Virus record (IMG/VR): IMGVR_UViG_3300037455_000402
Coordinates: 10,951-74,950 of that record
Source: a virus
Taxonomy: Duplodnaviria; Heunggongvirae; Uroviricota; Caudoviricetes
Strand: one strand, 5' to 3'
DNA: 64,000 bases
In this document: positions 3,396 through 59,447 of the stretch, one piece after another
How the letters are laid out: every line of letters starts with the position of its first letter
How positions within the stretch are numbered: position 1 is the first letter of the stretch
Position numbers and translations under genes: made by a program
Notes under the pieces: model-generated
Seen by the model: the letters and a program-made list of their open reading frames with translations, nothing else
Database searches by the model: none
What the model was told of the DNA's origin: nothing

Positions 3396-4013
3396 TGACT
3401 TGAAAACTTCATAAAAAATATGATTGCCAGTTTTTATCCTGTACTCATACAACGCTACGCATTATTCAGCCACAGTGACGATAAGTCTGAGCCCCATCCC
3501 CGTCGAGATGAAACTTCTTACCGCAGTTTCCGAAGAAACCCAAGCACTAAGGGGACTCTGTTTACCCCCAACTTTCACCCGTCATTCAGAATATTTGATT
3601 ACTATAAATCTTCTTTAAAGTTTTCAAACCAAACTGAGCCTTGGGCTACTCGCACCACCGTCAGGTTCTTACACGTTTCCGTGTAAGTGTAGGCTCAACT
3701 CCATTATTTTGCGTTCCCTGTATTTGCTCACGTCTTGCGGACGTGGTCTGCAGGGTTATTCCTCACTGAGGCGTCTATTGTTGGAGCAACCAGTTTAGGT
3801 GTGCCATTGCTCACGTTGCACCTGTGCCACGACTTCTCTCTTGATGGCTGGTATACCATCTTGTTCCGCCGCCTTTCGACTTCGGAAAAGAAACCTTATC
3901 AAGGTATCCCTTGACCTGACCTCTCAGCAGTTTCACCGTGCCCTTGCAGAGCTGACTAAGCCCTCATTTTAACACAAGGTTACAACATACTTTTTATGAA
4001 GTTTTCAAGTTTC
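3396..4013 (-). ncRNA. candidate large structured ncRNA (~620 nt; ROOL/GOLLD-like placement)
   Basis: no ORF >90 aa on either strand; 5' ACUUGAAAACUUCAUA and 3' UAUGAAGUUUUCAAGU form a perfect 15-bp terminal stem; sits between tRNA-Ile and tRNA-Ala. Confidence 0.45.
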
Positions 4014-4090
4014 TGGTGCCGCCGAGAAGATTCGAACTTCCGACCTCTCGGTTATCAGCCGAGTGCTCTAACCAACTGAGCTACGACGGC
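4014..4090 (-). tRNA. tRNA-Ile(GAU)
   Basis: anticodon loop CTGATAA; T-arm GGAAGTTCGAATCTTCT; CCA encoded. Confidence 0.8.
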
Positions 4091-4177
4091 ATTTGGTGAA
4101 CCATAAAGTCGGCTCATACTACACATCTATCACCTTTTTTTATAGTAGGAGTCTCATTTGTTCTTAAAACCTACTTG

Positions 4178-4253
4178 ATGGAGCGAGATAAGGGAATCGA
4201 ACCCTCACCCTCTGCATGGCAAGCAGAGATTCTAACCGTTAAACTAATCCCGC
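4178..4253 (-). tRNA. tRNA-Gly(GCC)
   Basis: anticodon loop TTGCCAT; acceptor GCGGGAT/ATCTCGC; CCA encoded. Confidence 0.75.
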
Positions 4254-4321
4254 ATTAATTCCAACTATTAACCGAAGTTGGCACGAGATTGTGAGCAATC
4301 ACCTTGAAAATGCCCGAAGGC

Positions 4322-4410
4322 TGGCGGGAGCGACAGGGTTCGAACCTGCATAGGAAATAAATTTCCGACGGTTAACAGCCGCCTGCCTGAGACCGTTAGG
4401 CTACACTCCC
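4322..4410 (-). tRNA. type-II (long variable arm) tRNA with GUU anticodon, G73 discriminator (Ser-like body, Asn anticodon)
   Basis: acceptor GGGAGTG/CGCTCCC, anticodon stem GGCGG/CCGTC loop CTGTTAA, 13-nt variable hairpin GGAAATTTATTTCC, T-arm GCAGGTTCGAACCCTGT, GCCA end. Confidence 0.5.
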
Positions 4411-4419
4411 ATTTTAAAT

Positions 4420-4495
4420 TGGCGACTCCAACGGGACTCGAACCCGTAACTCCAGCGTGACAGGCTGGTGACTTAACCAGTTAATCGACAGAGCC
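4420..4495 (-). tRNA. tRNA-Asp(GUC)
   Basis: anticodon loop CTGTCAC; T-arm ACGGGTTCGAGTCCCGT; CCA encoded. Confidence 0.75.
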
Positions 4496-4504
4496 ATTAA
4501 TAAT

Positions 4505-4589
4505 TGGTCGGTAGAGAGGGACTCGAACCCCCAACGCCATAGGCAACTGTTTTACAGACAGCTCGCTTAACCAGTTTGCATACCTACCG
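4505..4589 (-). tRNA. tRNA-Tyr(GUA)
   Basis: type II; anticodon loop CTGTAAA; variable arm TGCCTATGGCGTT; C1-G72; CCA encoded. Confidence 0.75.
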
Positions 4590-4686
4590 ATTTGGTTGAC
4601 GTTTAAGTCCGCCGCGCTGCTCATACCCGTTTTTGTTTCTACCGTGAGAACTACATTTGCTCCAAAACTCACTATAAACTTGTCAT

Positions 4687-4763
4687 TGGCGATACCGACG
4701 GGACTCGAACCCGCAACCTCTGGAGTGACAGTCCAGTGCTCTACTCTATTGAACTACGGCACC
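4687..4763 (-). tRNA. tRNA-Asp(GUC), second copy
   Basis: anticodon stem CTGGA/TCCAG loop CTGTCAC; CCA encoded. Confidence 0.75.
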
Positions 4764-5339
4764 ATTAAATAAGCAGGTCATCAAGAGCAGTTGGCTTCGA
4801 ACCAACATCACAGCTTTAACGCTGCATCTTGTCCAGTTAGAAGATACTCTCTATCTGCACAACTTATTTTAACGTGTAGTTGCCAAACACGGTTCTATCT
4901 AACGTAGGTTGTCTCCTCGTTTGTACAAATAAATTCAACTCCAGTAAGTATTCCATTGATTACGTCATTCAGACGTAGAGGGCGTCGAACCCACGACTTA
5001 TCTTTCGTTAAGGCTTTACCTTTCGACTTCTCGTTAGAATTACCCGAACAGCACCACGGGGAGGTGAGAGTCATCGCTGTTCATTGATTGGAAATCATAT
5101 CAGTACGGACGTCCAATCTGGAATACCGATATTCTTTCTACGCCATCAATCAGTGGCGGCTTGTTTTAAGAGCTAATTCAAGTTGTGCTTTCCAACCTTT
5201 TTCACTCAGGTAGTATCTTCACTTGCGAACCTCAGGTTTTCCGAACTTGAAACCTTAGTAAAGCGGGAGGATTTACCTCTTGAAACCCTTCAAAGTCAGA
5301 CATTTTATTTAAAGCTAAGCAAAAATGCCAAAACTTCTC
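4764..5339 (-). ncRNA. ~575-nt non-coding spacer with tRNA-fragment-like hairpins (candidate structured RNA or tRNA pseudogene debris)
   Basis: no credible ORF; contains T-arm-like GGTTCGAAGCCAAC and GGGTTCGACGCCC without complete cloverleaves. Confidence 0.3.
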
Positions 5340-5415
5340 TGGCTGACAAGGTGGGACTCGAACCCACAACCCCGCGGTTAACAGCCGCGTGCTCTGCCAG
5401 TTGAGCTACTCGCCA
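5340..5415 (-). tRNA. tRNA-Asn(GUU)
   Basis: anticodon stem CGCGG/CCGCG loop CTGTTAA; U1-A72 acceptor TGGCGAG/CTTGTCA; CCA encoded. Confidence 0.75.
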
Positions 5416-5455
5416 ATCTGTATTGTAATTATTATGTAGGTTTTCTCAACCTTTT

Positions 5456-5493
5456 CTATAATAATTATATCATAAATTTTCTAAAAAGTCAAT
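5456..5493 (-). promoter_or_regulatory. consensus promoter TTGACT-N17-TATAAT
   Basis: minus strand TTGACTTTTTAGAAAATTTATGATATAAT; drives tRNA-Asn cluster. Confidence 0.7.
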
Positions 5494-5531
5494 TTCTCAA
5501 CTTCTTAAAAATTTTATAATCGAAAGGAATC

Positions 5532-5557
5532 TGGCGGAGTTCAAATCGGTGCCGCCA
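5532..5557. terminator. GC-rich hairpin H1 (GGCGG-N14-CCGCC), terminator-like
   Basis: TGGCGGAGTTCAAATCGGTGCCGCCA; related hairpins at 5584-5608 and 5790-5812 all with TTCAA in loop. Confidence 0.45.
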
Positions 5558-5583
5558 GCCACCAGTTATTTTAGAACGGAGGT

Positions 5584-5608
5584 GGGCGGATTTCAAACAG
5601 CGCCGCCC
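5584..5608. terminator. GC-rich hairpin H2
   Basis: GGGCGGATTTCAAACAGCGCCGCCC followed by T-run on plus strand. Confidence 0.45.
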
Positions 5609-5641
5609 CGCCAGTTGTTTTTGTTTCTTTCTTAACCTTTT

Positions 5642-5679
5642 CTATAAATATTATATCATAGTTTTTAGAAGAAGTCAAG
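5642..5679 (-). promoter_or_regulatory. consensus promoter TTGACT-N17-TATAAT
   Basis: TTGACTTCTTCTAAAAACTATGATATAAT; transcript runs into hairpins H2/H1 with no ORF (possible ~120-nt sRNA). Confidence 0.65.
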
Positions 5680-5708
5680 ATTTTTTAAACTCAAATTTTT
5701 GAAATTAT

Positions 5709-5782
5709 TGGTTGCGGACCGTAGACTCGAACTACGAACTCAAGCTTATGAGGCTTGTATTATGCCATTTCACTAATCCGCA
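5709..5782 (-). tRNA. tRNA-Met/Ile2(CAU)
   Basis: anticodon stem CAAGC/GCTTG loop CTCATAA; U1-A72; CCA encoded. Confidence 0.7.
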
Positions 5783-5789
5783 ATATACT

Positions 5790-5812
5790 GGGGCGGCAGT
5801 TTCAACCGCCCC
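5790..5812 (-). terminator. GC hairpin H3 downstream of CDS 5827-6246
   Basis: GGGGCGGCAGTTTCAACCGCCCC. Confidence 0.45.
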
Positions 5813-5826
5813 GTTTGAGTTCAGAA

Positions 5827-6246
5827 TCAGTCCTCAGCCTCAGCCTTTTCCTTACGCTTAGCCTCGTCCTTAGCAATCTTCTCTGCCTTTGCCTTAGCCT
5901 TCTCTGCGTCCTTAGTTGCCTTTTCAGCTACATAAGTCTCATACTCAGCCTTAGCTGCTGCAAAATCGAAAGCTGTATAAGTCTTCTTATCAGTCTTTCT
6001 GTTTGCGAACTCCTTGACAGTAGGATTGATTGTTACGACGATAGGATTTGTTTCGCCCTCAACCTCGGCAGTATCAACGATAACTGCGATTTCGTTTGTC
6101 TTTGAAGTATTGCCTGTTCTTACCATTGCTACGGCATCTTCGCCATACTCGCCTGCAAGAAAAGCTGTTATCTTCTCGATAACCTCAGTCTTCTTGTCAG
6201 CCTTTACCTTTGTGATTGTGTTTTCCTTAGTAATAACTGTTGCCAT
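5827..6246 (-). CDS. hypothetical protein with Lys/Ala/Glu-rich C-terminal tail (139 aa)
   Basis: ORF track; start at MATVITK with AGAGG RBS; C-terminus KATKDAEKAKAKAEKIAKDEAKRKEKAEAED. Confidence 0.55.
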   Translation of the reverse strand: MATVITKENTITKVKADKKTEVIEKITAFLAGEYGEDAVAMVRTGNTSKTNEIAVIVDTAEVEGETNPIVVTINPTVKEFANRKTDKKTYTAFDFAAAKAEYETYVAEKATKDAEKAKAKAEKIAKDEAKRKEKAEAED

Positions 6247-6319
6247 TTTGTACCTCTTTCTCTCACTTAAGGTCGTGAGCACCATTTAGATTATTTTTGA
6301 AAGGCTTTCTCAACCTTTT

Positions 6320-6357
6320 CTATATATATTATAACAAAGATTTTTGAAAAAGTCAAG
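6320..6357 (-). promoter_or_regulatory. consensus promoter TTGACT-N17-TATAAT
   Basis: TTGACTTTTTCAAAAATCTTTGTTATAAT. Confidence 0.7.
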
Positions 6358-6382
6358 ATTTTATTTTCTTGAAATTTTCAAT

Positions 6383-6458
6383 TGGTGCCGCGGGGCGGAA
6401 TTGAACCGCCGACACGAGGATTTTCAGTCCTCTGCTCTACCTACTGAGCTACCGCGGC
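6383..6458 (-). tRNA. tRNA-Phe(GAA), second copy
   Basis: anticodon stem GAGGA/TCCTC loop CTGAAAA; acceptor GCCGCGG/CCGCGGC; CCA encoded. Confidence 0.75.
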
Positions 6459-6462
6459 ATTT

Positions 6463-6540
6463 TGGTCGGGCATCAGGGACTCGAACCCTGAACTTGCTGA
6501 TTAAGAGTCAGCTACTCTGAACCAATTGAGTTAATGCCCG
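6463..6540 (-). tRNA. tRNA-Lys(CUU)
   Basis: anticodon stem GCTGA/TCAGC loop CTCTTAA; C1-G72; CCA encoded. Confidence 0.7.
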
Positions 6541-6735
6541 ATTATTACTGTTTGACTGACTTGTGTCTTATTCCTAACAGCTTAGGAAGGATATTGTTGA
6601 CCAGTAAATATCCAGAACTGCTGGGGGCTTCTCGCACCGCAGGCACGCCAGTTTTTCATCAGTCAAATGAGGCACTGGAATCTTCCTCAGTCGTTTTCTC
6701 CAAACGGTATGGAGCAGGATAATCGACCAAATCCT

Positions 6736-6812
6736 TGGTCACGGCAACGAGGTTCGAACTCGTATTTCCACCTTGAAAGGGTGGTGTCCTCGACCATTTA
6801 GACGATGCCGCG
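6736..6812 (-). tRNA. tRNA-Glu(UUC)
   Basis: Glu-type D-arm TCGTCTAAATGGTCGAGGAC; anticodon loop CTTTCAA; CCA encoded. Confidence 0.75.
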
Positions 6813-6925
6813 TTCTTAGAAGAGGTTGACCTTGGTATTGCAACCAGCCAGTCGATTTGACAACTCACCCCAGAATCGAACTGAGGCTTCACAAGTGTTT
6901 TGAAATAATCTTTTCTCAACCTTTT

Positions 6926-6963
6926 CTATAATAATTATATCATATTTTTTAGTAAAAGTCAAG
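6926..6963 (-). promoter_or_regulatory. consensus promoter TTGACT-N17-TATAAT
   Basis: TTGACTTTTACTAAAAAATATGATATAAT. Confidence 0.7.
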
Positions 6964-6982
6964 ATTTTTTAAATCTTAATTT

Positions 6983-7330
6983 TTACCATTCTGTGATGTC
7001 GGGGATTCTTTCTACATCTACGTCCCAGTTGTAAAGGTCGTCCTCAGTTGCTTCAGTAACAGTAAAGCCACAGTCAGCAACGAAGTTCTCATACTCACCA
7101 GAATCGTAGAAGCAAGCCTCGCCGCACTCTTCACCACGCTCTTCGTACTCGTCTTCGTCCATATCCTCTGGAGACCACTGAACGAGGTGCTCCCAAGTCT
7201 GAATATAGTCAGGGAGACCTTCGTCTGCCCAAACCTCAGCCTGTTCCTTGCACTTTGCGATTACGAAGTCAGTTTCATCGGTTCCAGCATAGCCGCAACC
7301 GTAAGTTACCTTAAAGATTTTTCCTTCCAT
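6983..7330 (-). CDS. hypothetical acidic protein (115 aa)
   Basis: ORF track; AGAGGAATTAAAAATG RBS. Confidence 0.55.
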   Translation of the reverse strand: MEGKIFKVTYGCGYAGTDETDFVIAKCKEQAEVWADEGLPDYIQTWEHLVQWSPEDMDEDEYEERGEECGEACFYDSGEYENFVADCGFTVTEATEDDLYNWDVDVERIPDITEW

Positions 7331-7355
7331 TTTTAATTCCTCTCTTTCATCTTTT

Positions 7356-7393
7356 CTATAATAATTATATCATAACTTTTTAGAAAAGTCAAG
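7356..7393 (-). promoter_or_regulatory. consensus promoter TTGACT-N17-TATAAT
   Basis: TTGACTTTTCTAAAAAGTTATGATATAAT. Confidence 0.7.
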
Positions 7394-7422
7394 ATTTCTT
7401 TCTTTTTAATTTTTTATTTGAT

Positions 7423-7497
7423 TGGTACCCCCAGAAGGAATCGAACCTTCGTCCCACGCTTAGAAGGCGCGTGCACTATCCGCTGTGCTATGGGGGC
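7423..7497 (-). tRNA. tRNA-Arg(UCU)
   Basis: anticodon stem CGCGC/GCGTG loop CTTCTAA; CCA encoded. Confidence 0.75.
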
Positions 7498-7686
7498 ATT
7501 TATGTGGCAGGTTTAATGTACCTGCCAAGCATTGATGACGAGATTCTTCCAGCCATCAGCTTCATATTTTGGTATGTCTACCTCTGCCGCTTCATGAGAG
7601 CTATAAACCCCGAATTATCTTTGGAGCATTTACATTAATGAAAAGCTCACATTTTGTAATTCCCGTAAGAATGTAAACAGTTTCCA

Positions 7687-7956
7687 TTACTTTTCCTCCC
7701 TCTCAAAATAATCCGCAGGATAACACCAGAAATAGTCGTCGATGTAGAAGTGGTCAAAAGCAAGAAGACCATACTTCTGTTCTCTCTGCTCCTTGATGTT
7801 TGCTTCAAGTTCTGCAAGCAGTTCCTTAGCATCTTCTTCGTTATGATTTTCCTTGATATACTCAACGACATAATCATAAGCAAGATTAATGTCTGAGAAT
7901 ATCTTATAGTTACAGTCGTGGTCTTCAAGAATGAAGAGTTCTCTTACAGGTTTCAT
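7687..7956 (-). CDS. hypothetical protein (89 aa)
   Basis: ORF track; AAGGAAGTAAAACATATG RBS. Confidence 0.55.
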   Translation of the reverse strand: MKPVRELFILEDHDCNYKIFSDINLAYDYVVEYIKENHNEEDAKELLAELEANIKEQREQKYGLLAFDHFYIDDYFWCYPADYFEREEK

Positions 7957-7983
7957 ATGTTTTACTTCCTTTCTCTTAACTTT

Positions 7984-8021
7984 CTATATATATTATATCA
8001 AAAGTTTTCTAAAAAGTAAAG
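7984..8021 (-). promoter_or_regulatory. consensus promoter TTTACT-N17-TATAAT
   Basis: CTTTACTTTTTAGAAAACTTTTGATATAAT. Confidence 0.65.
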
Positions 8022-8044
8022 ATTTTAAAAGCTTTAAATTTTAA

Positions 8045-8118
8045 TTGGCAGGGGCTAAAGGAATCGAACCCTTATCTTGCGGGTTGGAGCCGCTTATAAT
8101 ACCATTATACGAAACCCC
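8045..8118 (-). tRNA. tRNA-Trp(CCA)
   Basis: A1-U72, discriminator G, anticodon loop CTCCAAC; CCA encoded. Confidence 0.75.
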
Positions 8119-8480
8119 TATTACTGAGGACTTATAATGCCTACTCATGTCCACCCGCCACAGCAGATGTCCTTCTTTCAGCGTTAAATCGCCCTCAACT
8201 TAAAGCTTTAAGTGAATGTTCCGCCGCCACCCGTCGACTGATGGCGTTGTCCTCTCTCTGGAAGTTTTCAGGTTACCACCCCACTACTCTTCGTTGTAAT
8301 GATACGGAAGGTCCAACCTCGCCATGGACCTACAGCTACTACCCTTTGTCTTCTACTAAGGTATAGTTAGTATTCAAGTTTTAGTACCAGAACTAACAAA
8401 GGTACACTTAAGCCCGAACTAAGTTTAACGTCTTGTCGGTAAGACCACAGGAAAGGGGATAGGGATATTCTGTGCTGTTT
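8119..8480 (-). ncRNA. ~360-nt non-coding spacer of unknown function
   Basis: no ORF; between tRNA-Trp and Ala-like pseudo-tRNA. Confidence 0.2.
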
Positions 8481-8552
8481 CTGAAGCTGAGGAGACTCGA
8501 ACTCCTAACCTACGGCTTCCCGCCGCTGCTCTCCCTATTGAGCTACAACCCC
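8481..8552 (-). pseudogene. tRNA-Ala-like pseudo-tRNA or tRNA-like element (no canonical anticodon loop, no CCA)
   Basis: 5' half GGGGTTGTAGCTCAATAGGGAGAGC nearly identical to tRNA-Ala at 3317-3395; G3:U70 kept; anticodon arm GCGGC-GGGAA-GCCGT has a 5-nt loop. Confidence 0.4.
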
Positions 8553-8580
8553 TAACAGGATGGAATCTTTCCCGAACCCT

Positions 8581-8657
8581 TGGTACCAGCGGTGGGACTC
8601 GAACCCGCAACCCCCTGCGTATGAAGCAGGTGCTCTCACCAATTGAGCTACGCTGGC
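8581..8657 (-). tRNA. tRNA-Met/Ile2(CAU), second
   Basis: anticodon stem CCTGC/GCAGG loop TTCATAC; CCA encoded. Confidence 0.65.
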
Positions 8658-8817
8658 ATATTCACAAGATACACTTAAAAAAACCACTCCGCTGTGTTTG
8701 TCTACTTCACTACTCGCCCATAATGGTGGGCGAGGATAGGATTTGCACCTACGAAGCCTTTCGGCGGCGGATTTACTTTGGGTTAAATTAACAATAGATT
8801 GCTGTATGTATCTTAAT
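8658..8817 (-). ncRNA. Y-RNA-like RNA with permuted tRNA-like domain (family member b)
   Basis: 5' AUUAAGAUACAU-ACAGCAAUCUAUU box; 3' GUGUAUCUU pairs with 5' end; internal order T-arm (GTAGGTGCAAATCCTAT) - acceptor 3' strand CTCGCCC-A-CCA - loop - acceptor 5' strand GGGCGAG - D-arm-like; U8 run. Confidence 0.5.
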
Positions 8818-8896
8818 TGGTGGACGATACGGGAATCGAACCCGTCTGATTTCCTGTTTGCAGGACAGGTGACCACCCCTTGCAGTCCCATCGCCC
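8818..8896 (-). tRNA. tRNA-Ala(UGC) variant with C33
   Basis: G3:U70; anticodon stem CCTGT/ACAGG loop CCTGCAA (C at position 33); CCA encoded. Confidence 0.55.
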
Positions 8897-9105
8897 ATTA
8901 ATTGAGGTAGTCGTACGCACTACTTTCATATTCCAGAAGCCGCTCAATCGGCTCGGTTAAGTCTGGCTTACGTGGACTTCCATTCACGCTACATAATTTC
9001 TCGAATCCAGTAGGGGAACGCCGCCGTTATGGTAGACGATTAATATACCTCGGCTCCTTACAGCCGCCGTGACCGACAGGTTTGTACGAACACCCTGCAA
9101 ACGAT

Positions 9106-9180
9106 TGGTACTCACGAGTGGGATTGAACCACCGACCTTTTCCACGTCAAGGAACTGCTCTCCCGCTGAGCTACGCGAGT
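9106..9180 (-). tRNA. tRNA-Val(GAC)
   Basis: A1-U72; anticodon loop TTGACGT; T-arm GGTGGTTCAATCCCACT; CCA encoded. Confidence 0.7.
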
Positions 9181-9327
9181 ATATAAAGAGTAAGTAGGTG
9201 CGGTGACATAAAGTTCTTCCGCAACACCCAAAAGCCAATGCTGACAGTCATACGACTTTCTTTCCAAAACCTCAATCTCATTGTCAGCGCTAACACCAAG
9301 ATATTTTGATTTTGCTACTTACTATAT

Positions 9328-9401
9328 TGGTTGCCGTTGAGAGATTCGAACTCCCGATTACTGGGTCAGAGCCAGCTGTGTTACCACTTCACTAAACGGC
9401 A
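9328..9401 (-). tRNA. tRNA-Gln(CUG)
   Basis: U1-A72; anticodon stem GCTGG/CCAGT loop CTCTGAC; CCA encoded. Confidence 0.75.
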
Positions 9402-9797
9402 ATAAATTAACAAAATTGACCAAGAAAAACTTCAACTGTTCATTTACTCTATGCCAGACACTCGGTAGTTGGTCTACATAGCCAACAGAACTCGCTAAAG
9501 CGTTCTTTCCACTTCCACTCCTCAAATCCGAGAAGAAGTTTCTCTTAGTTTCTTTCGGAGGTCTTGAGGGATGCTCTCAATTCCTCTTGGGAGGTTATAA
9601 CCAACAAGCTGACTGTTTCTCTTTACGTTGAGAGGTTATCTTACGCCGCCTAACGCTGCGGAGCGAAGCGAACAATGGCAAGGGACCTTCAGCATAGGGA
9701 GCAGTCCCCGCGGAGTGAACTTCGACGATTTTGTCGCTTGTAGATAAGCTGCATGAAAGTATACGCCGCCCTATTTCGCATCTGCCACCATTCAAAT
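9402..9797 (-). ncRNA. ~390-nt non-coding spacer (unknown structured RNA?)
   Basis: no ORF; GC-rich hairpins (GGGACTGCTCCC); between two tRNA-Gln genes. Confidence 0.2.
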
Positions 9798-9871
9798 TGG
9801 TTTCCGCTGAGAGACTCGAACTCCCATTCTTGGCTTCAGAGACCAGTGTCCTACCATTAGACGAAACGGAA
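9798..9871 (-). tRNA. tRNA-Gln(CUG), second copy
   Basis: U1-A72, D-arm TCGTCTAATGGTAGGAC, anticodon loop CTCTGAA; CCA encoded. Confidence 0.7.
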
Positions 9872-9877
9872 TTAAAT

Positions 9878-9966
9878 TGGTCGGCAGGGTAGGACTCGAA
9901 CCTACAAGACTCCTAAGAGCAACGGGGTTACAGCCCGCGACGCTACCAATTACGCTCTACCTGCCG
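9878..9966 (-). tRNA. tRNA-Tyr(GUA), second copy
   Basis: type II; anticodon stem GCGGG/CCCGT loop CTGTAAC; long variable arm; C1-G72; CCA encoded. Confidence 0.75.
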
Positions 9967-10190
9967 ATTAATAAGTGAGTAGCGGATAGTTACCTCACTT
10001 TCCAAGTTATGTACTTGGTCTAACACTCGCTTTACAGCTGATGGCGAATGTCTTGAGCAGCCGTGGCTCTCCGTAACAACTTAAAACTATTCGCAGACTC
10101 GAACTGCACCTTACTCCCTGAAGGAATTGAACCTTCTTACCTTGATAAATCAAGGTCACGACGTCACGTCTCTAATAGTTTAAGATTTAA

Positions 10191-10266
10191 TGGTGACGGC
10201 AACGGGATTCGAACCCGTATTTCTACCTTGAGAGGGTAACGACCTAAGCCATTAGTCGATGCCGCC
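10191..10266 (-). tRNA. tRNA-Glu(CUC)
   Basis: Glu-type D-arm TCGACTAATGGCTTAGGTC; anticodon loop CTCTCAA; CCA encoded. Confidence 0.7.
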
Positions 10267-10385
10267 ATTAATATCAAATATTCCTTTCGGCTACTCGACG
10301 CAAAGAGTGCCGAGGTGGACCGTTAACCCACATCCATCTCCGAAGGTGCTGACGGCGGAATATTTAATACTTTTCTCAACCTTTT

Positions 10386-10423
10386 CTATATATATTATAC
10401 TATAATTTTTAAGAAAAGTCAAG
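10386..10423 (-). promoter_or_regulatory. consensus promoter TTGACT-N17-TATAAT
   Basis: TTGACTTTTCTTAAAAATTATAGTATAAT. Confidence 0.7.
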
Positions 10424-10443
10424 ATTTTTTAATTTGAAATTTT

Positions 10444-10519
10444 TGGTCGGAGTGACAGGACTCGAACCTGCGGCATCATGGTCCCAAACCACGCATTCTA
10501 CCAACTGAATTACACCCCG
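10444..10519 (-). tRNA. tRNA-Pro(UGG), second copy
   Basis: C1-G72; anticodon stem CGTGG/CCATG loop TTTGGGA; CCA encoded. Confidence 0.7.
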
Positions 10520-10786
10520 ATTTATGGAAGCTTTCCCCGTAGGGAGGTTTACCAACCCCTTAGCTAAGTATTGCTTAACTGTCTTCACGCATACAGTCAT
10601 AGCTCTGTAAACTATCGCGGCTATGTTGCTCACATTTAATCGTTTTCTCATTGAAACGGAGTTGTCATACATAACAAAAACACTATCTGAAAGTCACCTG
10701 TTTTACCGACAGGTCGAGCAAGTTATCCAGTGCTTGCCACTGTGGAAGCTTTGCACGTATACCAGCAGGCTTACCAGCCGAAATGT

Positions 10787-11179
10787 TTATGCGAAGTAAA
10801 GTCCTTCAGACCAAGAAGGAAAATCAGGTTCAATTACCTGAGCCGCAGACTCTCCTGCCATTTTTCCGTCTTCCCACCAGTGCATCCACCAGTCCTTGCT
10901 GTCTTCACCCTCGCCCTCAAGAGCGAACTTGAACTCAGGGAATTTTGCAGCGAACGCAGTCATATCCTCATCGTGTTCATACCATTTCCAGTCAGAAGAG
11001 TATTCAACAAGACTGTTGAGAAGCTCTATATTACTATCAAGCTCATCTTCCTTGAAATAAGAGCCATTGAAGATACGAGCAAACTCAGTTGCAAGTTTCG
11101 GAAATGCAGAATGTTCTGCAGTTATAGGGTTATTCTCTTTATCGACGATTGTCATTTTGAAATTGGTTATGTATCCCAT
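10787..11179 (-). CDS. hypothetical Trp-rich acidic protein (130 aa)
   Basis: ORF track; AAGGAAGTTAAAAATATG RBS. Confidence 0.55.
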   Translation of the reverse strand: MGYITNFKMTIVDKENNPITAEHSAFPKLATEFARIFNGSYFKEDELDSNIELLNSLVEYSSDWKWYEHDEDMTAFAAKFPEFKFALEGEGEDSKDWWMHWWEDGKMAGESAAQVIEPDFPSWSEGLYFA

Positions 11180-11206
11180 ATTTTTAACTTCCTTTCTTCA
11201 CCTTTT

Positions 11207-11244
11207 CTATAATAATTATAACATAATTTTTTAGAAAAGTCAAG
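11207..11244 (-). promoter_or_regulatory. consensus promoter TTGACT-N17-TATAAT
   Basis: TTGACTTTTCTAAAAAATTATGTTATAAT. Confidence 0.7.
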
Positions 11245-11267
11245 TTTTATTTTTCATAAATTTTTAA

Positions 11268-11343
11268 TGGAGCTAACGGAGGGACTCGAACCCTCAGCCT
11301 ATTGATTACTAATCAATTGCACCACCGATTGTGCTACGTCAGC
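11268..11343 (-). tRNA. tRNA-Thr(AGU) (A34)
   Basis: G1-C72,C2-G71 Thr-like; anticodon stem ATTGA/TCAAT loop TTAGTAA gives A34-G35-U36; CCA encoded. Confidence 0.55.
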
Positions 11344-11345
11344 AT

Positions 11346-11420
11346 TGGCACCCTCGGAAAGAATCGAACTTTCATCTTGTGGTTCGTAGCCACATATCCT
11401 ATCCGTTGAACGACGAGGGT
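11346..11420 (-). tRNA. tRNA-Arg(ACG)
   Basis: anticodon stem TGTGG/CCACA loop CTACGAA; CCA encoded. Confidence 0.75.
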
Positions 11421-11635
11421 ATATAGGAATGAGAGTACGCGTCCTCTCTACGACAATCCTGTGCCGCCTTGTCTCTCCTCACGTGAAGACTTGGATACGG
11501 ACGCTCCTTACAGTTTAGGAGTAACTCAACGCAACTTATACGGCGTTTCGGCAGTAAGGCGTTTAACGAAAAAGCCTTATCCCAACGTCCCTTACTTTGA
11601 GGTCGAAGGGCTAACCTAAGGGGATTGAACCCTGT

Positions 11636-11725
11636 TGGAGGTGATGGTCGGATTCGAACCGACGAGAAGGGGATTGCCCTGTTCACGGAGTTGCAGTCCG
11701 CCGCCTTACCACTTGGCTACATCAC
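11636..11725 (-). tRNA. type-II tRNA with GCA (Cys) anticodon, irregular acceptor end
   Basis: 3-bp D-stem GCC/GGC (Ser/Leu-like), anticodon stem GCGGA/TCCGT loop CTGCAAC, ~21-nt variable arm, T-arm GTCGGTTCGAATCCGAC; 3' end CATCACU-CCA with G1-U72 and no clear discriminator. Confidence 0.45.
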
Positions 11726-11763
11726 CATTTGTGAGAGAGATTTTAAATGTCTCTCTCAACTTT

Positions 11764-11802
11764 TCTATATATATTATAGCATATTTTTTTTTAAATTGTA
11801 AA
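11764..11802 (-). promoter_or_regulatory. consensus promoter TTTACA-N18-TATAAT
   Basis: CTTTACAATTTAAAAAAAAATATGCTATAAT. Confidence 0.65.
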
Positions 11803-11813
11803 GATTTCTTTTT

Positions 11814-12347
11814 TTAGTAAGAATTATAAAATCGAAGTGTTATCTTCCAGTCTTCAAGATGAAGAAGAATATCGCAAAGCTCTTCACGGGAAAGACTACA
11901 ATCCCTATCCTCTACAATATTCTCAATAGCATCGCTGCAATTAATATATTGTATATAACAGCTTCTTGCAACAGAGTTCTTCTCATTAAGTATATCAGGA
12001 AGTCTTATGAAAAGATTATCCCAATTAGACATTCTTTGAAGCTGTCTAAGGACAATACTTCTGCCACACACTTCATTCCAGATACTATCTTCAAAGAAGA
12101 TATGATTGCGGTCCTTGCAAGCCTCAAGAAGACAGTCTATAACACGAGGAAGTACATCGGGAGTCGTTTCAATAAGAAAGTCGTCCTGTGTATCGAGAAT
12201 TTCGTCCTTATTTTTGCTTGCAACATTCATTATTTCAGAACGAAGCTCCCAAAACTTACGGAAGTAACCTATCTCAATGTCAAAGTCATCGACCTTATTA
12301 TCTTTTTCCCTGTGGAAATGAGCTTCTATGGAAAAATCAAGTCCCAT
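11814..12347 (-). CDS. hypothetical protein (177 aa)
   Basis: ORF track; start at MGLDFS with AAGGAGAG RBS; overlaps stop of upstream small ORF. Confidence 0.55.
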   Translation of the reverse strand: MGLDFSIEAHFHREKDNKVDDFDIEIGYFRKFWELRSEIMNVASKNKDEILDTQDDFLIETTPDVLPRVIDCLLEACKDRNHIFFEDSIWNEVCGRSIVLRQLQRMSNWDNLFIRLPDILNEKNSVARSCYIQYINCSDAIENIVEDRDCSLSREELCDILLHLEDWKITLRFYNSY

Positions 12348-12471
12348 CTTCGTCTCTCCTTTCCATATAATCATCGGCATCGCTCGCCGCCTTACAGAAA
12401 GTCAATGGAATTAATACGAGAATTGCATAGACTGTAAGTGCGCCCGTAAAGAGTAACATTGCTTTAATCAT
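12337..12471 (-). CDS. small hydrophobic membrane peptide (44 aa)
   Basis: MIKAMLLFTGALTVYAILVLIPLTFCK...; GGAGGCATAAGATG RBS; below ORF-track size cutoff. Confidence 0.4.
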   Translation of the reverse strand: MIKAMLLFTGALTVYAILVLIPLTFCKAASDADDYMERRDEDGT

Positions 12472-12472
12472 C

Positions 12473-12640
12473 TTATGCCTCCTTTACAACAGTTACGTTG
12501 TCAAGCTGTACGTTGTACTTAAGTGCGAAGGCTATTCTTGCTCTTTCAAGTTCGCCCTCATTCTTGACTGTTACGGTCTCAGTGTAGAAATCCTCTCCGC
12601 CAAGACCTTCTGCTGTAATTGCTTTTAAAGTAATGCTCAT
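12473..12640 (-). CDS. small hypothetical protein (55 aa)
   Basis: MSITLKAITAEGLGGEDFYTE...; GAAAGGAAGTAAAAGATATG RBS; downstream of promoter 12665-12702. Confidence 0.45.
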   Translation of the reverse strand: MSITLKAITAEGLGGEDFYTETVTVKNEGELERARIAFALKYNVQLDNVTVVKEA

Positions 12641-12664
12641 ATCTTTTACTTCCTTTCTGATTTT

Positions 12665-12702
12665 CTATATATATTATAACAAAAATTTCTTTAAAAGTAA
12701 AG
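12665..12702 (-). promoter_or_regulatory. consensus promoter TTTACT-N17-TATAAT
   Basis: CTTTACTTTTAAAGAAATTTTTGTTATAAT. Confidence 0.65.
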
Positions 12703-12770
12703 ATTTTATTTGCTATAAAATTAAGAAAAGGCGATAGCTTATGCAGCTACCGCCCTTATTTTACGTTTAA

Positions 12771-13265
12771 TTAGCCTTCTACCTTATTGACAATTTCACT
12801 ATCACAAAGCAAGTAACGGTCAGAGAGCTGTGCTATCTGGTTATACCAAACATCACCTGCATATGCCATTACCCTGTCATAAAGGTTTGTATAACAAGCT
12901 AAGTAAAAACCTACAAACTGTCTATATGCTTTACGATATGCTATCGCCTTAGCAAATTCAATATCATTAGCGTCGCCGACTCTAAGTACAGCTGTGCCGT
13001 GATATTCATAGTCAGTAGGGTCGTAAATATAAGAGTTTGAGCCGCTTATCTTCTCGGGACGGCACCAAGGTTCGTGCGCCCACTTAAACTGAGGAGTAGC
13101 TGCAATATTCATACCAATCATCTGTGCTGTACGCATAAGGATATAGTAAGGGTCTCTCGCTTCAAAGCCCTCAAAAGTAACAAAGCAGTGAACCTAACTT
13201 CCTGCATAACCATATCTAACGTCCTTAACACGAATCTTCACATTAGGACAAGAATACTGAATTTC
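12771..13265 (-). CDS. hypothetical protein, reading frame contains one in-frame TAG (codon 26)
   Basis: MNEIQYSCPNVKIRVKDVRYGYAGS-TAG-VHCFVTFEGFEARDPYYILMRTAQMIG...; strong GAGGAGG RBS only at the upstream ATG (13265). Confidence 0.5.
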
Positions 13266-13301
13266 GTTCATTTTTAAATCCTCCTCAGAATTGATTTTAT
13301 T

Positions 13302-13652
13302 TGGTGGAGATGACGGGAATCGGACCCGTGTCCAAACCTCTTAGTATCTATCGTCTACAAGTTTAGGATTCCCGAGCCTGTTCTCTTCTTGCCGCGCTCT
13401 TTCGGGACCACGAATGGCGGTAGCGTATTGGTCATTAATACGACTTACTGTCACCAAGCCAGTAAGAAGAATAAAGAATAAAATCGAAAGGGATGATAGA
13501 GTTCTTCTTTATTAGTAAACTACGATAACCCTTATGAGCTGCGATTAGGCAGCAAATGCAAAATCGTTTGCGTTTAAGTTTAAGTTGGCTATAAGGTTGC
13601 CGACCACTTGCAGATAGGGAACGCCAAAGCCTGTCGAAACCTAAACATCCCC
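13302..13652 (-). ncRNA. ssrA: tmRNA (SsrA), tag reading frame ...ANDFAFAA-stop
   Basis: 5' GGGGAUGUUUAGGUUUCGACAGG matches tmRNA 5' consensus; 3' GGACACGGGUCCGAUUCCCGUCAUCUCCACCA tRNA-like end; internal GCAAACGATTTTGCATTTGCTGCCTAA = ANDFAFAA*. Confidence 0.8.
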
Positions 13653-13748
13653 ATTTTAAATTCATAATTAATGTAGAGCAAGACAGATTAATTTACAAAA
13701 AATTCATAATGGCTTGTAATTTTTATAGATTGCTGTGTCTGTCTTTGT
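13653..13748 (-). ncRNA. minimal member (c) of the CAGCAAUCUAUA-box RNA family (terminal stem + hairpin, no tRNA-like domain)
   Basis: 5' AAAGACAGACACAGCAAUCUAUA, 3' CUGUCUUGC complementary; between suppressor tRNA and tmRNA. Confidence 0.35.
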
Positions 13749-13825
13749 TGGTTTCTCCGCTGCGATTCGAACGCAGGAATGGCAGTTTTAGAGACTGCTG
13801 TCTTGAGCCACTTGACGACGGAGAA
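13749..13825 (-). tRNA. amber suppressor tRNA(CUA), Gln-like
   Basis: U1-A72 acceptor TTCTCCG/CGGAGAA, D-arm TCGTCAAGTGGCTCAAGAC, anticodon stem GCAGT/ACTGC loop CTCTAAA (C34-U35-A36); CCA encoded. Confidence 0.75.
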
Positions 13826-13936
13826 TCAAAACACGATAGGTCTTTTGAGGACCGTCCTCGGTTTTAAGGCGGGAGTCGAACCCTACCCAGCAAAAATGGC
13901 TGCTTTAAATTGTATGGATTGCTGTAACTATCGTTA
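13826..13936 (-). ncRNA. CAGCAAUCCAUA-box RNA family member (d)
   Basis: 5' AAUAACGAUAG..CAGCAAUCCAUA, 3' CUAUCGUGU terminal stem; internal T-arm-like TAGGGTTCGACTCCCGC and hairpin GAGGACGGTCCTC. Confidence 0.35.
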
Positions 13937-14028
13937 TTGGCGCTGAAGTGAGGTGTCGAGCCCCATACCGCTCATCACGGTACCGCCCGTTTTCAAGACG
14001 GGGTTGCGAGCCGTCGCAATTACTCCAG
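13937..14028 (-). tRNA. tRNA-Ser(UGA)
   Basis: type II; anticodon stem CCCGT/ACGGG loop CTTGAAA; variable hairpin TACCGTGATGAGCGGTA; G73; atypical T-loop CTCGACA; CCA encoded. Confidence 0.65.
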
Positions 14029-14032
14029 CATT

Positions 14033-14126
14033 ATGGCGGCAGGGGAGGGATTCGAACCCTCGGACCACCTCATCGGCGGTCGGTTCCTTAGCAGGGAACT
14101 GGTTTCAGCCAACTCACCCACCCTGT
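14033..14126 (-). tRNA. tRNA-Ser(GCU)
   Basis: type II; anticodon stem GTTCC/GGAAC loop CTGCTAA; long variable arm; G73; A2-C71 mismatch; CCA encoded. Confidence 0.7.
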
Positions 14127-14269
14127 CATTACAAGACACCTTTTCGATAAAATCGTCGTTCTGCTAACTGAACTATCCCCCTATATAATTGGCAGGGGGA
14201 GACGGAATTGCACACGTCGTTTACGGCTTGGATTGCATATCATAATATAGATTGCTGATGTGTCTTAAT
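14127..14269 (-). ncRNA. Y-RNA-like RNA with permuted tRNA-like domain (family member e)
   Basis: 5' AUUAAGACACAU-CAGCAAUCUAUA; 3' GGUGUCUUGU pairs with 5'; T-arm-like GACGTGTGCAATTCCGTC - TCCCCCT-G-CCA - loop - AGGGGGA-TA-GTTC AGTTAGCA GAAC (D-arm). Confidence 0.5.
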
Positions 14270-14344
14270 TGGTTGCCGCGCAAGGAATCGAACCTTGGTA
14301 CGAAGGGTTAGAGCCTTCAGTCCTGCCACTTAGACGACGCGGCA
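14270..14344 (-). tRNA. amber suppressor tRNA(CUA), second, Gln-like
   Basis: U1-A72 TGCCGCG/CGCGGCA, D-arm TCGTCTAAGTGGCAGGAC, anticodon stem GAAGG/CCTTC loop CTCTAAC; CCA encoded. Confidence 0.75.
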
Positions 14345-14349
14345 ATATT

Positions 14350-14427
14350 TGGTGTGCCTGATGGGACTCGAACCCATGACCCCCTGCTTAAAAGGCAGGT
14401 GTTCTAAGCCGACTGAACTACAGGCAC
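14350..14427 (-). tRNA. tRNA-Lys(UUU)
   Basis: anticodon stem CCTGC/GCAGG loop CTTTTAA; acceptor GTGCCTG/CAGGCAC; CCA encoded. Confidence 0.75.
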
Positions 14428-14500
14428 ATTATTAAATATAAGGATGCCACCCTTACTGTTGGGTGTTCTACCCAGCTTTAATCACTTTCCTCTCAACTTT

Positions 14501-14538
14501 CTATAAATATTATATCATAAATTTTTATAAAAGTCAAG
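14501..14538 (-). promoter_or_regulatory. consensus promoter TTGACT-N17-TATAAT
   Basis: TTGACTTTTATAAAAATTTATGATATAAT. Confidence 0.7.
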
Positions 14539-14556
14539 TTTTTATGTGGTGGGACT

Positions 14557-14630
14557 ACCCAGATTCGAACTGAGATACGACGGTTATGAGCCGTCAGTCC
14601 TACCATTAGACGATAGTCCCATAACTACAA
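14557..14630 (-). tRNA. tRNA-Met/Ile2(CAU), third
   Basis: anticodon stem GACGG/CCGTC loop CTCATAA; acceptor GGGACTA/TAGTCCC; CCA encoded. Confidence 0.7.
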
Positions 14631-14976
14631 AAGGTAAGAGCCAAGCGCGACCGCACCGTACTACTTACACGCCCGAATCAAGTTCGACGTTGCCAACAGA
14701 ACTCTGCCCTACGCGCGAATAGCAGGCAGTTCTCTCCTACATCCACTCCTCGTAACAGCACTGGCATTTGGCTCTCGTTCCTTTTGCGGGTGACACCGTA
14801 ATCGTCACCTATCAACCGCATTACCTACTGCTTCCACGTCATCTACTATCGGACTCCACAATAAGCAGGTCAATATGCAAATAATTAGCTCCCCTTACGG
14901 CAGGTTTGCTCACTTTATCGTATGAGCTGCTAAGTTACGCCTTGTAGTTTCGTAAGCGCCTACTACACGCTACAAT
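14631..14976 (-). ncRNA. ~345-nt non-coding spacer (unknown)
   Basis: no ORF; no complete cloverleaf found by eye. Confidence 0.2.
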
Positions 14977-15052
14977 TGGTAGGGGATATGGGACTCGAAC
15001 CCATGACTTCTTGCTTGTAAGGCAAGCACTCTCGCCGCTGAGTTAATCCCCT
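14977..15052 (-). tRNA. tRNA-Val(UAC)
   Basis: A1-U72 AGGGGAT/ATCCCCT; anticodon stem CTTGC/GCAAG loop CTTACAA; CCA encoded. Confidence 0.75.
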
Positions 15053-15192
15053 ATAAAACAAGATACGTTGTTTGATTTATCGCGCGTCTGCTAATTCCGC
15101 CACTCCCCGATGATGGTCGAGGAGGTAGGATTTGCACCTACAATGTACGAGCTCCCTAAGCCTATCAGTTATAGATTGCTGCACGTATCTTA
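15053..15192 (-). ncRNA. Y-RNA-like RNA with permuted tRNA-like domain (family member f)
   Basis: 5' AUUUAAGAUACGUG-CAGCAAUCUAUA; 3' ACGUAUCU pairs with 5'; T-arm GTAGGTGCAAATCCTAC - CTCCTCG-A-CCA - UCAU - CGGGGAG - D-arm-like. Confidence 0.5.
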
Positions 15193-15318
15193 AATTGGTA
15201 CGGGTGGGTTCTATCAGCATCAAGTACTACCCGTTTAGCTTTCGCTATTTTCTTTTTCAGAAGAAAGAACTTAAAACCTGCATAGTTTCTCGTTTCTAAT
15301 TCCTAAGCTGAAACCCGT

Positions 15319-15401
15319 TGGTCGGAGATAAGGGACTCGAACCCTTACGAATTAACATATGCTCCTAAGGCATACGCGTCTACCAATTCCGCCAATCTCC
15401 G
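15319..15401 (-). tRNA. tRNA-Leu(UAG)
   Basis: Leu-type D-arm TGGCGGAATTGGTAGACGCG; anticodon stem TATGC/GCATA loop CTTAGGA; C1-G72; CCA encoded. Confidence 0.75.
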
Positions 15402-59445: not shown

Positions 59446-59447
59446 AA

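Follow-up and report, generated by a model that had tools for sequence, protein, structure and literature searches.

A stretch of 64,000 nt (hereafter the window), corresponding to positions 10,951-74,950 of the Caudoviricetes record IMGVR_UViG_3300037455_000402, was analysed with regard to two tRNA genes with anticodon CUA, named Sup1 (13749-13825) and Sup2 (14270-14344), which lie within a large tRNA array. Judging from the sequence, it is very probable that both are functional amber suppressors and that this phage uses code 15 (TAG = Gln) for a subset of its genes. A preliminary description had proposed an amber-to-Gln reassignment, which was supported by the distribution of TAG codons, by the 12 of 12 TAG/non-TAG differences from a close relative in which the other codon was CAG or CAA, and by a likelihood advantage of 24.5 nats for Gln over 133 alignment columns. 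A total of 43 tRNAs and one transfer-messenger RNA (tmRNA) were predicted in the window by ARAGORN, all of them on the minus strand, as are all the features reported below; 41 of these tRNAs and the tmRNA form a dense array (2774-19238), and the other two tRNAs appear at 40447-40836.

Both suppressor loci were called by ARAGORN with the anticodon cta. Moreover, in a local scan with the Rfam tRNA model RF00005, for which the gathering score is 29 bits, the matches covered the whole model (positions 1-71 of 71), with 54.3 bits for Sup1 (13752-13825) and 52.2 bits for Sup2 (14273-14344). The covariance model could have rejected the cloverleaf or the position of the anticodon, and it accepted both genes with CUA at positions 34-36; thus, the canonical cloverleaves and the anticodon loops CTCTAAA (Sup1) and CTCTAAC (Sup2) that had been described from the letters alone were confirmed. 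In particular, C34, U35 and A36 fell between U33 and A37 of a canonical 7-nt loop in the Rfam alignment, the acceptor, anticodon and T stems comprised 7, 5 and 5 bp, respectively, the D-loop contained GG, and the T-loops of the two suppressors were TTCGAAT and TTCGATT. Both genes also present the pair U1-A72, A73 and an encoded CCA. Single-sequence folding by minimum free energy was uninformative for tRNAs. In the whole-window Rfam run at the gathering score, Sup2 was listed and Sup1 was missing, an omission that is read as a loss in the speed filter and not as a rejection, because the same model scores Sup1 higher on a shorter sequence.

Both loci were labelled 'Pyl' by ARAGORN, which is the name that this tool gives to cta in the bacterial code. 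In a tRNA-Pyl, the D-loop is short and lacks G18-G19, a single base separates the acceptor stem from the D stem, the anticodon stem has 6 bp, the variable loop has 3 nt and the T-Psi-C consensus is missing, with pylS/pylBCD nearby. In the suppressors, two bases separate these stems, the D-loop contains GG, the anticodon stem has 5 bp, the variable loop has 4-5 nt and the T-loop reads TTCGA, and tRNA-Pyl was rejected on this structure. Furthermore, no pyl genes were found among the Pfam hits of the window.

Relatives were retrieved from viral and metagenome collections through a pattern search combining the suppressor D-arm with CUCUAA, and six contigs had orthologues of both suppressors (L008, L050, L061, L091, L094 and L098). 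Both paralogues were present in 7 out of 7 contigs (the window and its six relatives), the anticodon loop being invariant within each paralogue and CUA being kept in all orthologues. Among 9 distinct sequences, 99.4% of the stem cells were paired, with double-sided changes in 11 out of 20 pairs, opposite to a control with the 3′ partners slid, in which pairing dropped to 31-49%. The T-stems of the Sup1 orthologues were fully compensated in all six contigs, the entire stem being swapped in L091 and L094, and compensatory changes were found in the acceptor, anticodon and T stems of the Sup2 orthologues. The gene order varied among the contigs, the genes appearing as tRNA-Lys, Sup2, tRNA-Ser and then Sup1 with the tmRNA (the arrangement of the window), as Sup2, a spacer and Sup1, or, in L094, with 3 nt between Sup2 and Sup1. 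Conservation of this kind marks Sup1 and Sup2 as functional tRNA genes under selection and as two old paralogues that are always retained together. The omission of Sup1 from the whole-window run, together with the degenerate tRNA-like sequences that do occur in the array, could suggest that the two cloverleaves arose by chance or are degenerate tRNA pseudogenes, unconnected to the in-frame TAGs. However, given that both scored above 50 bits across the full model and that in all seven contigs their anticodon loops are unchanged and their stems compensated, this explanation is already refuted at the level of the sequence, and practically no credence is given to it.

To delimit the use of TAG, open reading frames (ORFs) were taken from the minus strand with only TAA and TGA counted as stops. 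In-frame TAG was absent from 62 of the 73 ORFs (10,612 codons), although off-frame TAG was common (1.24% of triplets), while four genes with 1,924 codons held 42 TAG codons (53257-54003, 54282-54860, 59448-62492 and 62502-63914), the first being the ATG-start form of the ORF 53257-54318 and the last running on to the window edge. The ORF 59448-62492 encodes a 1014-aa protein of unassigned function, with 20 in-frame TAG codons and neither TAA nor TGA, whose homologues are full-length from 97% down to ~30% identity. The C-terminal part of a ~976-aa ORF (62502-64000) has 13 in-frame TAG codons in the window and 22 in its complete orthologue from the close relative L151. Fewer were found in a GIY-YIG nuclease-domain protein (53257-54318; 5-6 TAG codons), in a 192-aa ORF (54282-54860; 4 TAG codons and a single CAA or CAG codon, hereafter CAR) and in a UvrD-like helicase (58286-59383), whose only TAG (codon 8) is CAG in L151. 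Moreover, the gene order is preserved in four related contigs, in which the in-frame TAG codons fall in the corresponding genes. The two large TAG-rich proteins had no Pfam or PHROG match; they may be structural or late gene products, and the 1014-aa protein is probably virion-associated. Almost all the ORFs of the block 195-53257, to which the tRNA array and the RNA-repair genes belong, are free of TAG, and their Gln codons are mostly CAG and far less CAA.

As for termination, TAA was used 56 times and TGA 18 times. Under the standard code, 5 out of 95 ORFs end in TAG, of which three are fragments of the 1014-aa gene, one overlaps tRNAs, and the fifth (57765-58274) has sense codons opposite that position in relatives. 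TAG is not a terminator of any genuine gene. The stop-to-stop ORF coverage under alternative codes was not discriminating alone. It might be argued that TAG is mainly a stop, the tRNAs giving low-level regulated readthrough or the TAG-containing genes being decaying pseudogenes, as release factor 1 (RF1) of a standard-code host should compete at these codons and the window has no gene related to release factors. Nevertheless, with 20-22 TAG codons per ORF of ~1000 aa, partial readthrough would leave practically no full-length product, and the absence of TAA and TGA over 3 kb, the full-length conservation down to 30% identity, the 42 TAG positions kept between strains with changes that are synonymous if TAG = Gln, and the lack of real genes terminating with TAG all make a stop function very improbable.

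Two codon regimes were also distinguished, with a G+C content at third codon positions (GC3) of 0.377 in the TAG-free genes vs. 0.236 in the TAG-rich ones and CAG:CAA counts of 221:42 vs. 13:22, respectively (Fisher p = 1e-8). This split bears on whether the host itself reads TAG as Gln, in which case the phage tRNAs would merely top up the host code. Phage tRNA arrays usually supplement host pools, which would allow such a scenario; however, the lack of TAG in 62 of 73 ORFs despite its off-frame frequency would be expected only of genes that have to function under the standard code, the two gene sets are sharply distinct in codon usage, and standard-code hosts have been reported for TAG-to-Gln phages (Borges et al., 10.1101/2021.08.26.457843). 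A recoded host is, therefore, held to be highly improbable. As a separate observation, when window positions 1-53000 and 53000-64000 were compared, the TAG-free genes favoured G-ending codons (AAG > AAA) and the TAG-rich genes favoured A-ending codons (GAA far above GAG).

The amino acid corresponding to TAG was approached by comparing window positions 49134-64000 with L151 (95% DNA identity). A total of 42 in-frame TAGs were common to both, and all 12 positions with TAG on one side only had a Gln codon opposite (CAG in 8 and CAA in 4). In four of these 12 TAG/CAR differences the codons are two substitutions apart, an argument in favour of selection for Gln. A wider comparison comprised 24 orthologue families from five genomes, with 133 TAG-containing columns evaluated by a BLOSUM-based likelihood. 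CAA (55) and CAG (36) were the commonest codons opposite TAG, and Q represented 19.5% of the residues found there compared to a background of 2.4%. Q also ranked first in likelihood, 24.5 nats ahead of E and K, and among the columns in which all non-TAG residues agreed, 10 presented Q and 3 each E and K. The same correspondence was found within conserved motifs, such as GQTK-TAG-AFKERW vs. GQTKQAFKERW (the motif of the GIY-YIG protein, in which relatives have CAA or CAG) and EAA-TAG-EY vs. EAAQEY. Furthermore, CAR-encoded Gln is low in the TAG-rich genes (1.9%), a gap that TAG (2.2%) fills. The comparison with L151, the alignment columns and the low CAR-encoded Gln are three independent indications of Gln, and they support TAG as a sense codon here, with Gln as by far the best reading.

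Still, functional CUA tRNAs could insert a residue other than Gln, such as Glu (through a non-discriminating glutamyl-tRNA synthetase (GluRS) without transamidation), Lys or Tyr, or the two paralogues could differ. Indeed, K (11.3%) and E (10.7%) followed Q among the residues opposite TAG, Sup1 behaved about equally under Glu and Gln profiles, and the D-arm type of the suppressors is in common with a tRNA-Glu. By contrast, none of the 12 recent TAG replacements was GAA, GAG, AAA or AAG, the likelihood and the agreeing columns placed Q well above E and K, and U1-A72, which both suppressors have, is missing from all three tRNA-Glu genes of the array. An inserted residue other than Gln is thus considered very unlikely, and Gln is retained as the best reading of TAG.

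With respect to the identity of the tRNAs themselves, U1-A72 is a determinant for both glutaminyl-tRNA synthetase (GlnRS) and the GatCAB amidotransferase. Among the 43 tRNAs, the combination of U1-A72 and A73 was found only in three tRNA-Gln genes, in the two suppressors and in one tRNA with anticodon CAT. The anticodon loops of the two tRNA-Gln(CUG) genes, CUCUGAC (9328-9401) and CUCUGAA (9798-9871), match those of Sup2 and Sup1, respectively, except for G36 vs. A36, which fits an origin by a single transition, by analogy with Escherichia coli supE; the third gene, tRNA-Gln(UUG), was called by ARAGORN at 18831-18904. The pair U1-A72 is, as previously claimed, common to both suppressors and all three tRNA-Gln genes. 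The likeness of the D-arm TCGTC...GAC to these genes holds for the tRNA-Gln at 9798-9871 and fails for the other two, which have TAGTG...CAC; this D-arm also appears in a tRNA-Glu (6736-6812) and a tRNA-Met (14547-14620), and the signature in common with tRNA-Gln is U1-A72 plus A73. Similarly, the alignment against the tRNA-Gln genes of the window that the preliminary description had suggested was undiscriminating in overall identity, while the anticodon loops differed from tRNA-Gln(CUG) at position 36 alone. Home-made isotype profiles built from 204 tRNAs with the anticodon masked, which were 65% correct overall in cross-validation (Gln 16 out of 17), scored Sup2 best as Gln (42.4 bits vs. 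34.8 for Met) and left Sup1 between Glu and Gln. The remaining identity set of the E. coli GlnRS comprises G2-C71, G3-C70, G10, U35, G36, A37, U38 and G73, of which G10, U35 and A37 are present in both suppressors. Sup1 has U-A as pair 2-71 and A38, Sup2 has G-C as pair 2-71 and C38, and both have C-G as pair 3-70. The CAT tRNA mentioned above (5709-5782) presents U1-A72, A73 and a Gln-like D-arm, TAGTGAAATGG, and could be an elongator Met, an Ile2 through lysidine or another tRNA.

A possible course of events can be proposed from these features. A promoter-like site (TTGACT-17-(TG)TATAAT; 14509-14537), of the sigma-70 type with an extended -10 and an 11/12 match to the consensus, lies upstream of tRNA-Lys, Sup2, tRNA-Ser, Sup1 and the tmRNA, and its sequence is invariant in L008 and L050 despite diverged flanks, although the count of promoter-like sites in the region was not above that of shuffles. 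It is a candidate promoter of the unit with both suppressors, and its conservation as a sigma-70-type site suggests transcription by the unmodified host polymerase. Sup1 and Sup2 would then be co-transcribed with tRNA-Lys, tRNA-Ser and the tmRNA, probably from this site by the host RNA polymerase, and would be matured like the other tRNAs of the array, with the CCA being already encoded. Charging would occur through the host glutamine pathway, either GlnRS or a non-discriminating GluRS plus GatCAB, and U1-A72, A73 and U35 of the phage tRNA-Gln are retained in both suppressors. The charged tRNAs would compete with the host RF1 at UAG, so that genes with up to 20-22 TAG codons could be completed. 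The TAG-free genes, including the whole tRNA and RNA-repair region, would be translatable from the start of the infection under the host standard code, and the TAG-rich genes would become translatable as the suppressors accumulate, following the code-switch model of Borges et al.

Several observations weigh against this reading. No release factor, GlnRS, other aminoacyl-tRNA synthetase or GatCAB was found among the Pfam hits of the window, and consequently we infer the charging and the competition with RF1, as we do the transcription, the inserted residue, the timing and the outcompetition of RF1, from the sequence. In this regard, the claim that the recoding is supplied by the element itself stands for the tRNAs and not for a synthetase or a release factor, for which no gene was found in the window. 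Moreover, proteins with 20 TAGs and no encoded release factor or synthetase would need near-complete suppression, with an unexplained bypass of RF1. At the level of the tRNAs, the plain identity of the suppressors to the tRNAs of the window and to all those fetched was 60-68% everywhere and did not discriminate the isotype, and Sup1 gave a tie between Glu (21.8) and Gln (20.5) in the home-made profiles. Both suppressors also have A36 and A73 in place of G36 and G73 of the E. coli GlnRS set, albeit A36 is unavoidable for a CUA anticodon and A73 is also present in the tRNA-Gln genes of the phage. The sequence context of TAG gave no clear suppression signal at positions +4 and -1, with +4 being undistinctive. 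Finally, the TAG-rich set includes enzymes (a GIY-YIG nuclease, a glycosyltransferase and a GH113 protein) and the GH25 lysin orthologues of the relatives have 0-1 TAG, and a rule of 'late or lysis genes only' is therefore undemonstrated; since every gene lies on one strand, the timing of expression is unreadable from the layout.

Recoding of this type is already established in gut phages, and the present phage is a further example. Among TAG-to-Gln phages of the gut and rumen, which include the Lak, crAss-like, Agate, Garnet and Amethyst clades, suppressor tRNAs were reported in ~40% of the TAG-recoded genomes (Borges et al., bioRxiv 10.1101/2021.08.26.457843). As in those phages, the in-frame TAGs cluster here in one section of the genome, the code-change machinery is located in a block compatible with the standard code, at least one tRNA(CUA) gene is present with no dedicated synthetase found, and the probable genome size (~165-190 kb) falls in the class of the large clades. 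Unlike them, no release factor 2 was found in the window, the TAG-rich genes include enzymes, the GH25 lysin of the relatives is nearly TAG-free, and the suppressors lie in a 43-tRNA array with a tmRNA, a ROOL RNA, YrlA-like RNAs and RNA-repair genes.

A similar array was described in Phass-1 (OQ749652; proposed Phassvirus; 'Caudoviricetes code 15 clade' at NCBI), which has 36 tRNAs including three tRNA-Sup-CTA, with TAG in 28% of its ORFs and Gln inferred from alignments and tRNAscan-SE (PMC10607447). Both phages present a large tRNA array with several Sup-CTA genes, a suggested Clostridia-type host and no encoded synthetase. However, a single tRNA-Asn matches in DNA, the genomes and protein sets are unrelated, and the Sup-CTA of Phass-1 that was read here has a different D-arm (TAGCTCAATAGG...) and G73. 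Nucleotide and protein searches for relatedness with Phassvirus were negative except for that tRNA-Asn, the 1014-aa protein giving no hit. In crAss-like phages, code 15 was proven by metaproteomics (PMC9523058; also PMC7886860); TAG is likewise read as Gln and the suppressor tRNAs are phage-encoded, but those phages belong to another order, infect Bacteroidota and have protein-level proof.

In the E. coli supE suppressor (glnV44), the CUG anticodon of a tRNA-Gln is turned into CUA, which gives weak suppression and leaves TAG as a stop in the cell. The suppressors of the window resemble it in that their loops differ from the phage tRNA-Gln(CUG) solely by G36->A36, with U1-A72 and U35 retained, and depart from it in that some genes use TAG regularly as a sense codon, the lineage has fixed two diverged copies and A73 replaces G73. 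In addition, CUA tRNAs of ~90 nt that combine the same Glu/Gln-type D-arm with a long extra arm (...CCCUCUGAAGGAGG...) were observed in many unrelated metagenome contigs, including L011, L018, L027, L032, L035, L036, L047, L049, L058, L064, L067, L069, L078, L087, L099, L105 and L116, among others, and in some of them this tRNA adjoins a second CUA tRNA of 75 nt. By their sequence, these ~90-nt CUA tRNAs form a different and widespread suppressor class.

The phage is probably of roughly 165-190 kb, judging from related contigs, the longest of which measure 180-190 kb. By sequence comparison, it has no described relative among the GenBank phages, as a megablast of window positions 1-25 kb and 40-64 kb against them gave isolated tRNA matches only and a tblastn search with the 1014-aa protein gave no match; a peptide-pattern search with the same protein among viral contigs also found nothing, and no terminase was found within the window. 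The host is probably a Firmicute according to several weak indicators, none of them decisive: the UvrD gene is closest to those of Clostridium and Bacillus phages (top match Clostridium phage Amboise, 39.6% identity), a GH25 lysin and a CW_7 domain appear in related contigs, and the window has a ROOL RNA. This RNA (3408-4003; Rfam RF03087, 264 bits, full length) lies between tRNA-Ile and tRNA-Ala.

Other RNAs are interspersed with the suppressors. Within the putative transcription unit of Sup2, a tRNA-Lys(UUU) (14350-14427; ARAGORN, Rfam 73.2 bits) lies 5 nt upstream of this suppressor, and a class II tRNA-Ser(GCU) (14034-14127) was called by ARAGORN and scored 46.9 bits in Rfam. Next to the latter, a tRNA-Sec-like sequence with anticodon UGA (Ser codon UCA; 13938-14029) was missed by ARAGORN and reached 42.8 bits with the Rfam tRNA-Sec model, below the gathering score of 47. 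Its acceptor stem has 8 bp, its D-stem 6 bp and its T-stem 4 bp, and it also has a long variable arm and G73-CCA. It is conserved in L050, shows compensatory changes in L008 and L061, and is the sole Ser(UGA) candidate in the array. This sequence is probably an (8/4) tRNA-Ser, a type described from phages and rumen Clostridia (PMC5389517). Directly downstream of Sup1, the tmRNA (13302-13652; ARAGORN, Rfam 107.8 bits) has the predicted tag ANDFAFAA; the tag predicted for the tmRNA of L008 differs (AAYKKNGLSLLTKKRP). Elsewhere in the array, a 'tRNA-Ala(tgc)' (8818-8896) was unrecognised by Rfam, a 'tRNA-Ser(gga)' (8482-8552) of 71 nt lacks CCA and has class-I length, and an uncalled sequence at 15201-15318, ending in ...CCCACCCGTACCA near 15201, coincides with a tRNA-Phe(aaa) in L008 and L061.

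The spacers of the array include a family of structured units of 100-160 nt, which start with UAAGAYA 1-3 nt past the CCA of the preceding tRNA and end with UCUUGU just before the next tRNA, their ends pairing mutually in a terminal helix (UAAGAYAC/GURUCUUG). Full units were found at 14128-14269, 16517-16655, 15053-15200 and 8658-8817, and reduced ones at 13826-13937, 2850-2952 and 13653-13748; the motif CAGCAATCTATA of these units has 7 copies in the array, compared to 0.8 expected in the whole window. Four units share the internal order T-arm, closed 7-bp acceptor stem, UA and D-arm. In the family, the D-loop AGCA occurs with the T-loop UGCAAAU and GGUA with UUCGAGU, and in three or four units N73-CCA is encoded inside the acceptor loop. 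The unit between Sup2 and tRNA-Ser (14128-14269), recognised by folding and alignment as a YrlA-like tRNA mimic, consists of the terminal helix, the T-arm, the closed 7-bp acceptor stem with G-CCA in its loop, UA and the D-arm, and in 5 sequences 99.1% of its cells pair, with 6 compensatory pairs. The reduced member directly upstream of Sup1 (13826-13937) has the helix ACGAUAG/CUAUCGU, a T-arm-like hairpin and further hairpins, and is conserved in L091 and L098 with compensated hairpins and absent in L094. The Rfam YrlA model, for which the gathering score is 69, matched one unit (16542-16609) below this threshold, with 34.5 bits and E = 2.7e-5. The architecture of the units fits that of the YrlA-type tRNA mimics among bacterial Y RNAs (bioRxiv 10.1101/312249; PMC4201824), which have been found in 22 phages (PMC4201824), and their internal N73-CCA recalls the YrlA of M. 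smegmatis, an RNase P substrate to which CCA is added (PMC4201824). Two other interpretations were rejected: tandem degenerate tRNAs, as the acceptor strands pair and covary with each other and not with the flanks, and permuted tRNA genes, which are unlikely as the ends of the units do not combine into an anticodon arm.

A candidate partner of these RNAs is the protein encoded at 38803-40281, with domains DUF2828 and DUF7788. The 13 best fold matches in the PDB of its AlphaFold2 model (predicted local distance difference test score, pLDDT, of 91) were all Ro60/TROVE proteins, including the Ro60 of Thermus phage phiLo, with E from 3e-9 to 5e-5 and template modelling (TM) scores of 0.4-0.58. A sequence search of the PDB with this protein yielded no Ro60, which was found by fold comparison alone. 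According to the model, the protein has a Ro60 fold (TROVE plus the von Willebrand factor A domain) and is likely the partner of the YrlA-like RNAs. Its family is very widespread, with >7,500 database hits.

A set of TAG-free genes for RNA repair and metabolism was also found (21388-22512, 46045-46950, 41715-42626, 30011-30385, 31539-32420, 32460-33173, 33183-33665 and 15875-16336). It includes a T4 Rnl1-like ligase, a second RNA ligase (PF09414), a kinase (AAA_33) plus an HD phosphatase, a cyclic-phosphate-processing receiver domain (cREC_REC), a Band-7 protein, a metallophosphatase, a Macro domain (weak match) and an RNaseH-like PF04308 protein. Moreover, a Thg1-like protein (17996-18760) is encoded near tRNA-Gln(UUG) and a tRNA-His (19164-19238). 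Thg1 is a tRNA-His guanylyltransferase and 3′-5′ polymerase, and this location beside tRNA-His suggests G-1 addition or the repair of tRNA 5′ ends.

A speculative and rather unlikely extension is that the suppressors belong to a conserved translation take-over unit, coupled to the protection and repair of the tRNA pool by the Ro60-fold protein and the RNA-repair enzymes. This unit would comprise the promoter, tRNA-Lys, Sup2, the YrlA-like mimic, tRNA-Ser, the 8/4 tRNA-Ser, a second YrlA-like unit, Sup1 and the tmRNA, so that Y-RNA-like permuted tRNA mimics would flank each suppressor. As several mimics encode N73-CCA inside the acceptor loop, RNase P could open these into two-piece, possibly chargeable, tRNA-like RNAs without an anticodon. 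Together with the Ro60-fold protein, the two RNA ligases and the polynucleotide kinase-like and Thg1-like enzymes, the mimics might guard or repair the phage tRNAs against host defences directed at tRNAs. The evidence for coupling suppressors, Ro60, Y RNAs and RNA ligases is their co-location. If true, the code switch would be coupled to RNA repair, as the protected pool would include the suppressors needed by the TAG-rich genes.

In practical terms, gene calling in this phage lineage requires translation table 15, as otherwise the largest proteins are split into fragments. The phage adds a case outside the crAss and Lak groups, probably with a Firmicute host, that is characterized by two fixed and diverged suppressor paralogues, TAG/CAR interchange at the strain level and two codon regimes. 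Such a host would matter because glutaminyl-tRNA may arise there through the indirect GluRS/GatCAB route, which bears on how the CUA tRNAs are charged. Perhaps more interesting than the suppressors themselves is the array that surrounds them, with its 8/4 tRNA, its Y-RNA-like mimics, the Ro60-fold protein, the RNA ligases and the Thg1-like enzyme.

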